Positions 1 to 3,888 are shown, counted from the first letter of the stretch. The stretch: DNA of 64,000 nucleotides from Candidatus Cloacimonadales bacterium (GCA_963665815.1 OY762463.1:1664001-1728000); one strand, 5' to 3'. Numbers and translations: made by a program. The notes: generated by a model not told the origin, from the sequence alone.

Positions 1-1143
1 TGTTTTTCCACATCCGGACACTCCCACAATACCTATTTTCTCTCCCTGATTAATCTCAATATTCACATTTTCCAATATAGGCTTGTCTTCTTTGTAAAAA
101 AATTTCAATTCTCTGATTGAAAGCCTTTCAATTACAGATATGTTATAGTTGTAATCTATTACTTCACTCGGGAATGTCATTATTTCTTTAACTCGCTTCA
201 GGGAAACCATTGCCGTTTGCAATCTTACATTTAAATCAATAAGATTCCTTGCAGGATTGAACAAATACCTGATAAAAGAATTGAATGCAATCATAGAACC
301 AATTGTCAAACGGTCGTTAATAATCTCATATCCACCATACCCAATAATTATTAATGGAATCAGACCAATTATCATATTGGAAGAAACCTGGTAGATACTG
401 GTTATCTTTGTAAGTTTTACAGATTCTCTATATGCTGACTTCGATGAAGAGAAAAACTGGTAAATACTGAATCGGCTTCGAAGAAACTGTTTTATCAGAC
501 GAATAAGTGATAAACACTGCTCCAACGTAGAAACGCTTTTTGCCATTACTTCGTATGTAACCTCTGTTTGCGCTTTAATTCTCTTTCCGAAGAACACGGA
601 TAACCATACATATGGAATTATTAGAATTACTGAGAATAATGCAAGCTTGAAATGAATTGTAAAAATCACTGATAATCCTGCAATTAAATACAGAAGATCC
701 TTGAGTACCGCTACAAATGTTTCTGCGAAAAAAGATCTCAGACCTTCAGAATCACTATTTATCCTGGAAAGAAGATATCCTGAACTGTACTTGTTAATTG
801 TACTCAGAGGAGCATTATTAAGCCTTTCTAAAAGTGCAACTTTAATATCCAATATGATTTTATCATTTACCCGTTTCAACATTAAAGAATGAATATAGGC
901 TACCGCATTCTGAAATAATAGTATTGATAAAGTTATACCAACTAATACTATTAGTTCCGTTAAGTTCTTCCCGGGTAATGTAACATCAATAATTCTTCTT
1001 GTTATTAATGGTGTAGGCAAGATCAGTAGAGAAAGGATAATGATCAGACAGCAGACAAGCAGAATACTCTTCATGTATTTTTTATAGAAGTTCAGATATA
1101 AAAATCTGATAAAATTCAAGTTTTCATTCTTTGCTATTTTCAT
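1..1143 (-). CDS. ABC exporter, permease + ATP-binding fusion (partial, runs off the left edge)
   Basis: Not in the ORF track. Both ends translated by hand: from ATG 1143 MKIAKNENLNFIRFLY...LPTPLITRRIIDVTLPGKN (TM domain), and in the same frame the Walker A motif GEKIGIVGVSGCGKT at the window edge. No N-terminal C39 peptidase domain. Confidence 0.9.
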   Translation of the reverse strand, partial: MKIAKNENLNFIRFLYLNFYKKYMKSILLVCCLIIILSLLILPTPLITRRIIDVTLPGKNLTELIVLVGITLSILLFQNAVAYIHSLMLKRVNDKIILDIKVALLERLNNAPLSTINKYSSGYLLSRINSDSEGLRSFFAETFVAVLKDLLYLIAGLSVIFTIHFKLALFSVILIIPYVWLSVFFGKRIKAQTEVTYEVMAKSVSTLEQCLSLIRLIKQFLRSRFSIYQFFSSSKSAYRESVKLTKITSIYQVSSNMIIGLIPLIIIGYGGYEIINDRLTIGSMIAFNSFIRYLFNPARNLIDLNVRLQTAMVSLKRVKEIMTFPSEVIDYNYNISVIERLSIRELKFFYKEDKPILENVNIEINQGEKIGIVGVSGCGKT

Positions 1144-1161
1144 TGTCAGTGTATTCAGAAA

Positions 1162-2556
1162 TTACGAAGTTTCACTCTGGTTGAAGTAATTATCGATGCT
1201 TTCCTTACCTACATGGTCAAGAAGTCTGACATATAGTTGAAGCATACCTTCAATTTCACTTTTCTTTTCTGAGCATATTGAATTACTTGGAGATATATTT
1301 TCTGATCTCACGAAACTCACATAGCATAAATCGCAAAGATGAGCTCCCCAGCACTTGCTGCAGTTCTTCCCTTTGAAATAAAGCCAATCTCTTTCAATTT
1401 CATTTTTTCTGGCAGAAATTATTCCTTTATCAAGATCTCCTATGGGCATTGCGTGATCAATTTTCTCACACATATGAAAATTTCCTTCGGGAGAGACAAA
1501 CAACATTGCATTTCCCGGAGAACAGGCATGATAATTGACATCACTTCCTGAGTTTCTGAAATGTATCCTCTTTATACTTGTAATCAGATCCAGGTCTCCA
1601 CTCAAAAGCTTGCGATTTTTAAATCTATCTATAAATCCTGCTCTTCTAGCTCCGGTAATATCATCAATTCTACTTACTTCATCTTCATCAAAAGATTCAA
1701 TTTTTTCAGCATCATCGCTATCCCAAATCATAGATACATGTGAAAAAATTGGATTATCCTGTTGCAGATCAAAAAGTTCAACGAAAATTCCGGGAGTTGC
1801 CGCAGTAGCTACGAAATTAACATATTCCCTGTAATAATCAGGATACCTGTCTGAAATAGGCTTCAAGTTGTTCATTATTCTATCATAGGTCGGTTCACCA
1901 TTCAAAGCGATTCTGTATTTGTCATGAATTTCTTTTGTCCCATCTACACTTACAAATAATCTGATCTTGTTGGCTAAAAAGAAATCGATATGCTCTTCTG
2001 ACATTGCATAACCATTAGTAGTAATTGAAAATGTTATTTCGGACGGAAGCTCTTTTAAGTTTTTCACAATGTATTTCATAATGTCGAAATTTAATAGTGG
2101 TTCTCCTCCATAAAATCCGATATTCAGGTTCTCTTCCACATTGTAGTTTTCGTCAATCCATCTGATAAACTTGTCTGCTATCGTATAAGACATTTTCTTT
2201 GTTGAACTTGTTCTTGTGTAAGAATAGCTGTCCGAGTAGATACAGTACTTGCATTTTAAATTGCAGGCTTCAGTTAACCCAATAACAATTTTGAAAGGAT
2301 TTTTCTTCCTGTTTTCGTTCTTGATAGGCAAAAATGAGAATCCATTGCTTTCAGCTCTGTTTTTCATGTAATTCCGGAATTTATCGAAAACTTTCTCTAT
2401 TTCTGCATTTTCAGCATACTTATCAATATACTCATCTCTTGACATGCCCAAAAGATCATAAAATGTATTATACATGAATTCATTGATCTTAATAATGTTC
2501 GAGTTTAAAGAATCATAAAAGTAGACACCACTTACAGCTCTAAACTTTTTAAGCAC
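1162..2556 (-). CDS. Radical SAM/SPASM peptide maturase (CcpM-like)
   Basis: CNLKCKYC (CxxxCxxC) and FYGGEPLL; C-terminal SPASM Cys motifs CSPG..FV..G.FHMCEK and CSKCWGAHLCDLC..C; GGAGG RBS before the GTG start. Confidence 0.9.
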   Translation of the reverse strand: MLKKFRAVSGVYFYDSLNSNIIKINEFMYNTFYDLLGMSRDEYIDKYAENAEIEKVFDKFRNYMKNRAESNGFSFLPIKNENRKKNPFKIVIGLTEACNLKCKYCIYSDSYSYTRTSSTKKMSYTIADKFIRWIDENYNVEENLNIGFYGGEPLLNFDIMKYIVKNLKELPSEITFSITTNGYAMSEEHIDFFLANKIRLFVSVDGTKEIHDKYRIALNGEPTYDRIMNNLKPISDRYPDYYREYVNFVATAATPGIFVELFDLQQDNPIFSHVSMIWDSDDAEKIESFDEDEVSRIDDITGARRAGFIDRFKNRKLLSGDLDLITSIKRIHFRNSGSDVNYHACSPGNAMLFVSPEGNFHMCEKIDHAMPIGDLDKGIISARKNEIERDWLYFKGKNCSKCWGAHLCDLCYVSFVRSENISPSNSICSEKKSEIEGMLQLYVRLLDHVGKESIDNYFNQSETS

Positions 2557-2573
2557 TTCATCCTCCAGTATAT

Positions 2574-3596
2574 TTATGATCCCTTCACTTCGGATTTCGT
2601 TAACTTAAATATTATTCCATTATAGTTAGATACCAGAAATACTTTTCCATTTGAGGACAGTATTTCTCCTGACAAAGTCATCATATCTCCGGGTAGCTCA
2701 CATGAAGATTTCAATTCTCCTGTGATTGAGTATTCGCAAACAAACTCTCTTATATCATAAAAATGCTTAATATCTTCTATCTTTGTCAGTGATGAATTTT
2801 TCTTCTGGGCTGGATCTACACCATATGCTCTTTCAACAACGTAAAATCTGTCGTTCATCAGCACTGCATTACTTGTTTTTGAGTATTCCGGAACAGCATC
2901 CCTGTTTACTGATGATGAGAACTGAATTTTCTCATTATTCAAATCTTTGATACACCCAACTCTATTTATTGGTACTCCTATTAGTGAATTCTCATATTTT
3001 ATAATATCTATATGTTTATTTTCTTCCTTTAAATCATTATCCGAGCAGAATTGATCCAACTTCCTCACAGTTTTAAACTCTCCATTATTATATACCGTTA
3101 ACTTATAATCAGGTGCAAAATGAGCAGTTGTAACATATATGCTGTCTTCATAATTGTATACTTTACCAATCGGGTGGAATTTCTCAGCTTTAAGAAAATC
3201 ACCTTGCTTAGAAATCCATTGTATTCTGGAATTAGCAAAATCACCTACAACTATATCACCATTTTTATCAAATGTGAATGAGTTAGGATAAAGAAATTCT
3301 CCGGGACCTCTGCCCTTACTTCCAAATTTTCTCAGAAATTTCAAACTGTTAATCTCGTAAACATAAAAAACTGCATTATCAATATCCAATACGTACAGTT
3401 CTTCACCATCAATATTGTGAATATTGTTAGCTCCAAAAGTAAAGTTTTCATCATCCTGCCATCCCAATGAATCAGCTACTACTAATACAGATTTTGAACC
3501 ACTTTCACCACTCTTGTCCTGCCTGACACAAGAAACAGAGTTCAAAATTATAAGTGTTAATACTGTGAACGTTAAACTTGCTATTCCTTTCCTCAT
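2574..3596 (-). CDS. 6-bladed beta-propeller (NHL-like) lipoprotein
   Basis: Hydrophobic signal ending SVSC (Cys23); FGSKGRGPGEFLYP and GDIVVGDFANSRIQW propeller motifs; AGGAGA RBS. Confidence 0.75.
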   Translation of the reverse strand: MRKGIASLTFTVLTLIILNSVSCVRQDKSGESGSKSVLVVADSLGWQDDENFTFGANNIHNIDGEELYVLDIDNAVFYVYEINSLKFLRKFGSKGRGPGEFLYPNSFTFDKNGDIVVGDFANSRIQWISKQGDFLKAEKFHPIGKVYNYEDSIYVTTAHFAPDYKLTVYNNGEFKTVRKLDQFCSDNDLKEENKHIDIIKYENSLIGVPINRVGCIKDLNNEKIQFSSSVNRDAVPEYSKTSNAVLMNDRFYVVERAYGVDPAQKKNSSLTKIEDIKHFYDIREFVCEYSITGELKSSCELPGDMMTLSGEILSSNGKVFLVSNYNGIIFKLTKSEVKGS

Positions 3597-3669
3597 ATAT
3601 TCTCCTAAAATTAAGCTATCCGATGTTTTCCCTACTTATAAAATACAGCCCTTCAACTTAATTATCTTA

Positions 3670-3888
3670 CTATGATATACCTGAACTTGTATTGTTGCTG
3701 GATGAATTTACCAGTTTTCTGGCAGCATTCTGTTTAGCGCATCTTCTAGTTGATGCATCTCCAGCAGGATATGGTAAATTCTCACAAGTTTGACATTCCT
3801 GTGTGCTTCCACTGCCTGTGTCTTTATCAAGTGTAGAAGCTGTACTCACTATTTCCATTGAACATAAGTCAATTACATTATTATCCAT
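3670..3888 (-). CDS. Putative RiPP precursor peptide (72 aa)
   Basis: Strong GAGGAG RBS; first gene upstream of the rSAM/SPASM and ABC exporter genes; Cys9, C32xxC35, Cys50; Ser/Thr/Asn-rich. Confidence 0.7.
   Translation of the reverse strand: MDNNVIDLCSMEIVSTASTLDKDTGSGSTQECQTCENLPYPAGDASTRRCAKQNAARKLVNSSSNNTSSGIS

Follow-up and report, generated by a model that had tools for sequence, protein, structure and literature searches.

Clusters in which a radical S-adenosylmethionine (rSAM) enzyme with a SPASM domain modifies a small peptide form a known and crowded class, in which one more orphan would cause limited surprise. Here we compare with the closest described systems a four-gene operon found at the left end of a 64,000-nucleotide (nt) stretch of DNA from a Candidatus Cloacimonadales bacterium (GCA_963665815.1, OY762463.1:1664001-1728000), which is called the window below. 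The genes encode a small cysteine-containing protein of 72 residues, a propeller protein, an rSAM/SPASM enzyme and an ATP-binding cassette (ABC) exporter. We consider it probable that they form an operon of the type that makes peptides that are synthesized by ribosomes and modified after translation (RiPPs), and that its product is an exported, cross-linked peptide; the propeller, exported as well, would then bind or process this peptide or guard against it.

In the CcpM system, an rSAM enzyme of family TIGR04068 is accompanied by a TIGR04066 protein, a TIGR04069 protein resembling acyl carrier proteins (ACP), an ABC exporter and cysteine-rich peptides of the CLI_3235 type. Its product SacP23 from Paenibacillus polymyxa was reported to be active against methicillin-resistant Staphylococcus aureus, and the relevant excerpt of the report gives the cross-links as undetermined (PMC10731318). 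The GG-Bacteroidales system consists of a TIGR04149 peptide, a TIGR04148 rSAM enzyme, a TIGR04150 pseudo-rSAM protein and an ABC exporter with a C39 peptidase domain; it is known from in-silico work only, as far as the accessible portion of the survey by Walsh et al. describes it (PMC4573289). The ranthipeptide maturases CteB, which acts on SCIFF peptides, and PapB form thioethers derived from cysteine. CteB carries a RiPP recognition element (RRE) at its N-terminus and a SPASM domain, one of whose clusters has an open site that takes the substrate cysteine (PMC8172795, in excerpt). Finally, according to excerpts of two papers, the qhp operon encodes QhpC, a protein of about 9 kDa with thioethers, the 36-kDa beta-propeller QhpB and the efflux ABC transporter QhpF; QhpC is cross-linked by the rSAM enzyme QhpD, exported by QhpF and assembled with QhpB (PMC7876137, PMC8172795).

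All four genes of the window operon lie on the minus strand. The order of transcription is the small open reading frame (ORF), a candidate precursor peptide of 72 residues with an ATG start (3670..3888; MDNNVIDLCSMEIVSTASTLDKDTGSGSTQECQTCENLPYPAGDASTRRCAKQNAARKLVNSSSNNTSSGIS), then the propeller, a probable lipoprotein of the DUF5128/TolB_like family with 340 residues and an ATG start (2574..3596), the rSAM/SPASM enzyme, a putative peptide maturase of 464 residues with a GTG start (1162..2556), and the ABC exporter, of which 381 codons are visible before it runs off the window edge (1..1143). The gaps between the genes are 73, 17 and 18 nt. By direct reading, the small ORF has the ribosome-binding site GAGGAG (3894..3899, minus strand) 5 nt ahead of its ATG; AGGAG precedes the ATG of the propeller gene by 5 nt and GGAGGA the GTG of the rSAM gene by 4 nt, and no obvious ribosome-binding site was seen ahead of the start of the ABC gene. 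An earlier note on this DNA, made from the sequence alone, had described four co-oriented genes with short gaps, headed by a small ORF with a strong ribosome-binding site, and this description proved accurate.

Upstream of the small ORF, a consensus scan gave no promoter-like site, and it gave no terminator-like site in 1-4800. By eye, TTGACA (4056-4051) and TAGAAA (4033-4028), separated by a 17-nt spacer, make up a possible minus-strand promoter at 4028..4056; the second hexamer is weak and the pair fails the rule of the scan, and it is the only candidate. The nearest gene on the right belongs to a split glycine dehydrogenase and lies 812 nt from the small ORF. Since these genes are unrelated and on the opposite strand, we regard the small ORF as the right border of the cluster.

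The rSAM enzyme carries the motif CxxxCxxC (C98, C102 and C105) and seven cysteines in its C-terminal part (C345, C363, C399, C402, C408, C411 and C428). All ten cluster cysteines were invariant in an alignment of 112 sequences (the window enzyme and 111 homologues), in agreement with the complete set that the earlier note had read. Pfam recognized Radical_SAM with 64.5 bits (cut-off 29.5) and also Fer4_12; the Pfam SPASM model reached 15.1 bits against a cut-off of 21.5, and the generic SPASM model TIGR04085 gave 25.5 bits against 27 when the C-terminal 132 residues were used alone. The protein can be divided into an RRE-like domain (residues 1-70), a linker, the rSAM core with C98-C105 and the seven-cysteine SPASM region (345-428).

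The AlphaFold2 model of the enzyme had a predicted local distance difference test value (pLDDT) of 90.5 and a predicted template-modelling (TM) score of 0.89, and the pLDDT was at least 90 up to residue 70. At the N-terminus, the model contains strands at residues 2-7, 10-15 and 20-24, followed by helices at 26-30, 32-37, 40-46 and 53-69. An N-terminal extension of roughly 85 residues had been noticed earlier; it is real, extends over about 85-90 residues and models as an RRE-like, winged-helix peptide-recognition layout. The first 90 residues alone matched no NCBIfam model.

The profile of the 112 sequences matched CteB (5WGG/5WHY) best, with an E value of 7.6e-67 for 5WGG over positions 5-462, then anaerobic sulfatase-maturating enzyme (anSME; 4K36-4K39), ChlB and 8VPO (TigE), with SkfB lower down. 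The sequence alignment of the window enzyme to CteB begins at residue 17. Foldseek with the predicted model likewise put CteB chains first (TM-score 0.69-0.71 over 463-473 columns), followed by ChlB, anSME, SuiB, SkfB and TigE. CteB is thus the closest solved structure, with its N-terminal RRE and a SPASM domain holding two clusters, at about 20% identity in the structural alignment. These comparisons support placing the enzyme in the clade of RRE-bearing rSAM/SPASM peptide maturases.

The earlier note had drawn a parallel with CcpM-type systems, and this was borne out in part: CcpM/TIGR04068 was the top NCBIfam model and covered residues 2-445, yet its 223.8 bits lie well under the curated cut-off of 500, and true CcpM members from related loci scored 551-620 bits. 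The models that followed were RumMC (162.3 bits), TIGR04148 (159.6, cut-off 300), lachnocin (156.1), PapB (140.4, cut-off 340) and nif11 (128.2). Lower scores were obtained with SCIFF (113.2, cut-off 425), QhpD (113.1, cut-off 453; E 1.2e-32, residues 89-448) and anSME (92.9, cut-off 349). A search of 5.8 billion clustered proteins gave 765 matches from 4480 candidates; among the best 120, which were listed, the top match other than the enzyme itself had 30-33% identity (E 4.4e-57).

Related loci were collected in a single scan of species-representative genomes, for which the window enzyme was aligned with nine homologues. This gave at least 79 loci; the counts below refer to the 79 listed, which do not include the genome of the window itself. 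In a quick maximum-likelihood tree of 78 rSAM enzymes (IQ-TREE), the window enzyme fell outside the core CcpM clade of 39 rows (support by the Shimodaira-Hasegawa-like approximate likelihood ratio test, SH-aLRT, 100), a weak result on a long branch, and, provisionally, also outside the clade of seven rows whose members are partnered by TIGR04150 (SH-aLRT 100). Its attachment to the enzymes of loci L067, L058 and L059 (SH-aLRT 90) is provisional as well. The neighbourhoods of these three and of L029 and L010, the nearest tree neighbours, held nothing informative.

Viewed as a whole, the operon resembles a CcpM cluster in that the rSAM enzyme is matched over its full length with the layout RRE-rSAM-SPASM, an ABC gene without a peptidase domain adjoins it, and a small cysteine-containing ORF stands upstream. 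It differs in score and in its position outside the core clade. In addition, hidden Markov models (HMMs) built from examples in the loci found no TIGR04066-like or ACP-like gene in the 64-kb window, whereas these partner genes occur in 38 of the 79 loci and follow the rSAM gene in the core CcpM clade; the small ORF has one CxxC instead of CxCxC runs, and in place of those partners the window has a propeller that is probably a lipoprotein. Like some members of the GG-Bacteroidales system, the window has the gene for this probable lipoprotein between those for the candidate peptide and the rSAM enzyme, and TIGR04148 is the third-best model for the enzyme. In contrast to that system, however, the TIGR04148 cut-off is missed, the small ORF has neither a TIGR04149 match nor a double-glycine leader, no TIGR04150-like pseudo-rSAM gene is present in the window, the ABC exporter is without C39, and the enzyme lies outside the seven-row clade. 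Compared with the CteB/SCIFF and PapB systems, the family scores are again too low and the small ORF is without the six-cysteine C-terminal motif. The operon would work in the manner of a CcpM or GG-Bacteroidales cluster and is a member of neither; it falls short of both in score, in partner genes and in its place in the tree. In its minimal form of four genes, it brings together an rSAM enzyme of an orphan lineage, a peptide that is likewise an orphan and a propeller that is probably a lipoprotein.

Another reading is that the enzyme matures a protein, namely the propeller before its export, in the way that anaerobic sulfatase maturases act on sulfatases. The propeller gene is the one immediately ahead of the rSAM gene, and anSME is among the matches in both sequence (92.9 bits) and structure (4K36-4K39). 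On the other hand, the best matches are peptide maturases, the enzyme is predicted to have an RRE-like leader-binding domain, and of the four cysteines in the mature propeller chain only C184 is shared with one close relative (P0123) and none with another (P0124). Nor was a sulfatase found in the Pfam scan of the window or beside about 30 related rSAM enzymes scanned, the nearest tree neighbours included; the earlier note had named action on sulfatases by the closest homologues as what would speak against a peptide cluster, and these neighbourhoods gave no sign of it. We therefore consider maturation of the propeller by the rSAM enzyme very improbable, and return to a peptide as the substrate.

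As judged from Pfam, the visible 381 residues of the ABC protein comprise the transmembrane domain and the beginning (25 residues) of the ATPase domain. The protein aligns to models of peptidase-bearing exporters from about position 138 of the model onwards, which indicates that it has no C39 peptidase domain. In the 79 loci, its closest relative was the gene directly after the rSAM gene of L001, a locus from Krumholzibacteriia (E 1.3e-54, 28% identity over 385 residues); the next-best relative reached only E 8e-29. A cysteine-rich ORF of 62 residues lies just upstream of the rSAM-ABC pair in L001. From the kinship of the two ABC proteins, we conclude that the rSAM-ABC pair is common to the window and the Krumholzibacteriia locus.

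The propeller matched the Pfam families DUF5128 (PF17170, 35.3 bits, cut-off 22.9), TolB_like (PF15869, 31.3, cut-off 29.2) and NHL (23, cut-off 20), and its sole NCBIfam match was ScyF. AlphaFold2 gave a six-bladed model (pLDDT 78.9, predicted TM-score 0.76). With this model, Foldseek found NHL propellers at the top (TM-score 0.67-0.77) together with the Bacteroides structural-genomics proteins 3S9J and 4RAA; peptidylglycine amidating lyase stood lower in the list. The nearest clusters in the ESM Atlas were DUF5128, TolB_like and BF3164-family lipoproteins of Bacteroidota, Aminicenantota and Rhodothermota. At the N-terminus, basic residues come first and are followed by a hydrophobic run and Cys23, and a cysteine directly after the hydrophobic region of the signal peptide also occurs in four relatives (P0123, P0124 and the propellers of L013 and L035). 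The residues before Cys23 depart from the textbook lipobox. The signal sequence ending in Cys23 and its recurrence in the four relatives make it likely that the propeller is an exported lipoprotein. Close relatives are few, with 47% identity for P0123 and 30% for P0124.

We then searched the 79 loci with an HMM iterated from propeller proteins. A DUF5128-like propeller gene was adjacent to the rSAM gene and on the same strand in five of them (L013, L035, L039, L053 and L079), and all five propellers were predicted to be exported. In L013, from Bacteroidales, the order is TIGR04149 peptide, DUF5128 propeller lipoprotein, rSAM, TIGR04150 pseudo-rSAM and C39-ABC; in L035, from Parabacteroides, it is peptide, propeller, second peptide, rSAM and pseudo-rSAM. 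The order peptide, propeller, rSAM is thus common to the window and these two Bacteroidales loci. Three loci came from Aminicenantes: L039 has peptide, rSAM and propeller, L053 has propeller, rSAM, pseudo-rSAM and a thioredoxin-like protein, and in L079 an rSAM gene broken by an insertion element is followed by the propeller. In the tree, the five partnered enzymes are spread over at least three separate clades, and the window enzyme belongs to none of them. The propeller, to which the earlier note had assigned no function, thus appears to be no chance neighbour but a recurrent partner of such rSAM enzymes (five of 79 loci). It should be kept in mind that the DUF5128 propeller family has many paralogues in the phyla of these loci, which cautions against reading too much into the recurrence.

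Our literature search returned no paper in which DUF5128, NVEALA, PF17170 or a propeller is named as having a role with rSAM-modified peptides. In the accessible portion of their survey, Walsh et al. showed a cluster of Bacteroides fragilis in which a 'putative lipoprotein' is encoded between the gene for the TIGR04149 peptide and those of the rSAM pair (PMC4573289). In the literature searched, the link between DUF5128 propellers and rSAM enzymes thus appeared only as an unnamed 'lipoprotein' in this one in-silico survey, and its description is new here.

Several further features of the related loci were noted. Near-identical genes for a 77-residue peptide flank the propeller gene of L035 (941-1174 and 2703-2936), and both peptides have a double-glycine leader and a cysteine cluster. 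In L079 (869-3319), the rSAM ORF stops at 380 residues directly before two transposase-like ORFs, and L039 contains IS21-type and ISL3-type fragments as well as extra propeller fragments (5206-5571 and 5961-6671), so the rSAM-propeller pair sits within insertion elements in two Aminicenantes loci. After the pseudo-rSAM gene of L053, an exported thioredoxin/ResA-like protein of 392 residues is encoded (12813-13991), which suggests redox handling of a cysteine-rich peptide outside the cytoplasm. A true CcpM cluster, L018, includes a gene for a QhpE-like subtilisin (3135-4790; 104 bits, cut-off 165), a further part common to CcpM systems and the qhp operon.

The qhp operon offers a different explanation of the propeller. 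The cross-linked peptide might not be a free product; once exported, it might bind tightly to the propeller as its partner or subunit, in the way that QhpC joins QhpB. The parts list fits, because the window joins a small protein with four cysteines, a propeller with a mass of about 38 kDa, an rSAM/SPASM enzyme and an ABC exporter without a peptidase; the likeness is an analogy of architecture only. The biology of the qhp operon runs parallel to it in the excerpts cited (PMC7876137, PMC8172795), the QhpD model matches residues 89-448 of the rSAM enzyme, the propellers are predicted to be exported and stand beside the rSAM gene in all five loci that have one, and the window shows no gene of the immunity type and none for a protease. 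Set against this, the QhpD cut-off is missed by far, neither the propeller nor the small ORF matches any model of an amine-dehydrogenase subunit, and no heme subunit, QhpE protease or QhpG is encoded in the window. The small ORF contains no tryptophan and so cannot form cysteine tryptophylquinone. Moreover, 74 of the 79 loci are without a propeller. A peptide that ends as a bound subunit seems to us rather unlikely. The same holds for a broader, speculative idea that we draw by analogy, namely that DUF5128/BF3164-type propellers might generally be extracytoplasmic partners of rSAM-cross-linked cysteine peptides, with the peptide docking as a ligand or subunit instead of acting as a diffusible antibiotic; we would not expect it to hold.

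For a modified peptide that is exported and then met by the propeller, the small ORF is the candidate substrate, a role we infer from its position, ribosome-binding site, codon usage and likeness to the peptides of related loci. It has cysteines at positions 9, 32, 35 and 50, with a single CxxC (C32/C35), and no signal peptide. About 31 leader-like residues are followed by C32 and C35, C50 and a tail rich in serine and asparagine. This layout resembles that of ORFs of 50-70 residues beside the nearest rSAM enzymes, which have a short leader, a cysteine cluster in mid-peptide and a polar tail (L001, 5946-6134; L025, 9718-9876; L026, 9685-9900; L039, 8773-8928) and of one in a true CcpM locus (L009, 3904-4122). 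Many of the related loci carry such small cysteine-rich ORFs upstream, as would be expected from the earlier proposal of a precursor next to the enzyme.

Even so, the 72-residue ORF may not be the substrate at all; it could be a non-gene or an unrelated small protein, and the true precursor could be encoded beyond the ABC gene, to the left of the window, or at another place in the genome. In favour of this, the ORF has no credible relatives, it is poor in cysteine compared with the peptides of related systems, its ESM recognition score is low (1398) and the window ends inside the ABC gene. Some related loci have no evident precursor beside the rSAM gene, and the accessible part of the survey by Walsh et al. 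includes a CcpM cluster in which no structural gene is obvious (PMC4573289). Against this view, the ORF has a strong ribosome-binding site, lies on the same strand as the next gene at a distance of 73 nt, and takes the position ahead of the propeller and rSAM genes that the precursor has in L013 and L035. Its codon score was 0.216 in the called frame, compared with 0.083, -0.013 and -0.149 in other readings; of 153 unannotated ORFs of 50-130 residues in the window, 148 scored lower and five reached this value, which corresponds to the 15th percentile of 229 windows of 72 codons from true genes. No other cysteine-containing minus-strand ORF of at least 20 residues was found between 3889 and 4700. 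On this evidence, a precursor other than the 72-residue ORF appears unlikely. A 47-residue ORF at 4241-4384 was considered as a precursor and rejected; it contains no cysteine, and its best codon score was out of frame.

The earlier note had recognized the candidate precursor as no named family, and the searches agree with it. The small ORF matched no Pfam family, gave only a chance-level NCBIfam match to an unrelated reductase model (E 0.058) and had no usable match in the ESM Atlas. In a full phmmer search of 1.84 billion representatives, it retrieved itself and two repeat proteins, P0132 (3003 residues, ten stretches) and P0133 (1117 residues, four stretches). Both were rejected as homologues and judged to be chance matches, because their scores add up short matches of 28-43 residues across many repeats. 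Residues 28-70 of the small ORF have short stretches like the repeat of P0132, a surface-type protein, and like part of the repeat unit of P0133.

From these less likely readings we come back to the RiPP-type operon with an exported, cross-linked peptide, which we hold to be probable, and to what weighs against it. The small ORF fits no NCBIfam precursor model and has no double-glycine leader. A word-sharing search of the 5.8 billion clustered proteins found only itself, the phmmer search found nothing credible, and none of 12,362 ORFs from the 79 loci matched it; lacking a credible homologue, it draws no support from conservation, either as a gene or as a substrate. Four cysteines with one CxxC stand against the CxCxC runs of peptides beside related enzymes. 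The rSAM enzyme is below every curated NCBIfam family cut-off, and its branch of 1.78 in the quick tree makes its placement unsure. As for the propeller, the great majority of loci do without one, as already counted, and among the best 120 of the 765 rSAM matches there was no sign that P0123 or P0124 adjoin a close relative of the enzyme. The left border of the cluster lies beyond the window edge.

If the operon makes such a peptide, its assembly could proceed as follows. The N-terminal 30 residues or so of the 72-residue product would serve as a leader bound by the RRE-like domain of the rSAM enzyme, as the fold prediction and the analogy with CteB suggest. The enzyme would cleave S-adenosylmethionine at the CxxxCxxC cluster, assisted by the two auxiliary SPASM clusters, and would link the sulfur of one or more cysteines, most likely C32, C35 and C50, to carbons of other residues. 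Family resemblance points to thioether bonds of the kind made by CteB, PapB and QhpD. In a sactipeptide such a bond joins the cysteine sulfur to the alpha carbon of the partner residue, in a ranthipeptide to its beta or gamma carbon. The adjacent ABC exporter without a peptidase domain may then carry the modified peptide over the cytoplasmic membrane. Outside the cytoplasm, the exported propeller may meet the peptide and bind or present it, help to remove the leader, or protect the producer; the recurrence of the gene pair and the predicted location of the propeller argue for this last step. Because the exporter has no peptidase domain and no protease gene is in view, removal of the leader could fall to the propeller, to the product of a gene to the left of the window, or to a housekeeping protease. 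The identity of the substrate, the type of cross-link, export and each of the propeller roles are thus inferred from the comparisons above.

The product of the operon is likely to be chemically new, as the rSAM enzyme is at most 33% identical to any of the matches listed and the peptide has no credible relatives. The operon also suggests that exported DUF5128 propellers are repeatedly linked with rSAM enzymes of cysteine peptides, in at least three rSAM clades besides the lineage of the window. DUF5128/BF3164-type propellers are abundant in Bacteroidota and Aminicenantota and make up a large family whose function is unknown. Should the propeller prove to be a receptor, a processing scaffold or an immunity protein, this large family would gain a testable role. 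If it is a docking partner, the four genes of the window would represent such a system at its minimum, and both the peptide and the rSAM lineage would be new. In either case, a small operon of four genes would be a convenient model for testing the role of the propeller.

Tandem repeats (4125-4637) lie in the intergenic stretch that separates the small ORF from the glycine dehydrogenase genes. A unit of 104 nt is present there in 2.2 tandem copies with 97% identity (4406-4637), and a degenerate third copy lies at 4125-4228. A 19-nt core of the unit occurs three times, a number reached in none of 100 shuffles. One unit folds into two hairpins with -20.7 kcal/mol (z -2.57). Rfam gave nothing at the gathering score across the window and only sub-threshold matches in 3600-4760; the repeat unit matched no Rfam family, and no glycine riboswitch was found before the gene at 4701. 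The glycine dehydrogenase (4701-7488, plus strand) is split into two genes of 447 and 491 residues; the second, as called from a TTG start, has an overlap of 32 nt with the first, and this start may be wrong.

The other genes of the window are ordinary chromosomal ones and include those for Mfd, MutL, fumarate hydratase, CheR, a GGDEF protein and an SLT-LysM transglycosylase. A co-oriented run on the plus strand (22831-28015) contains, in addition to two ORFs without a Pfam match, genes for a dynamin-family GTPase of 752 residues, an HDOD-domain protein and a GGDEF diguanylate cyclase.

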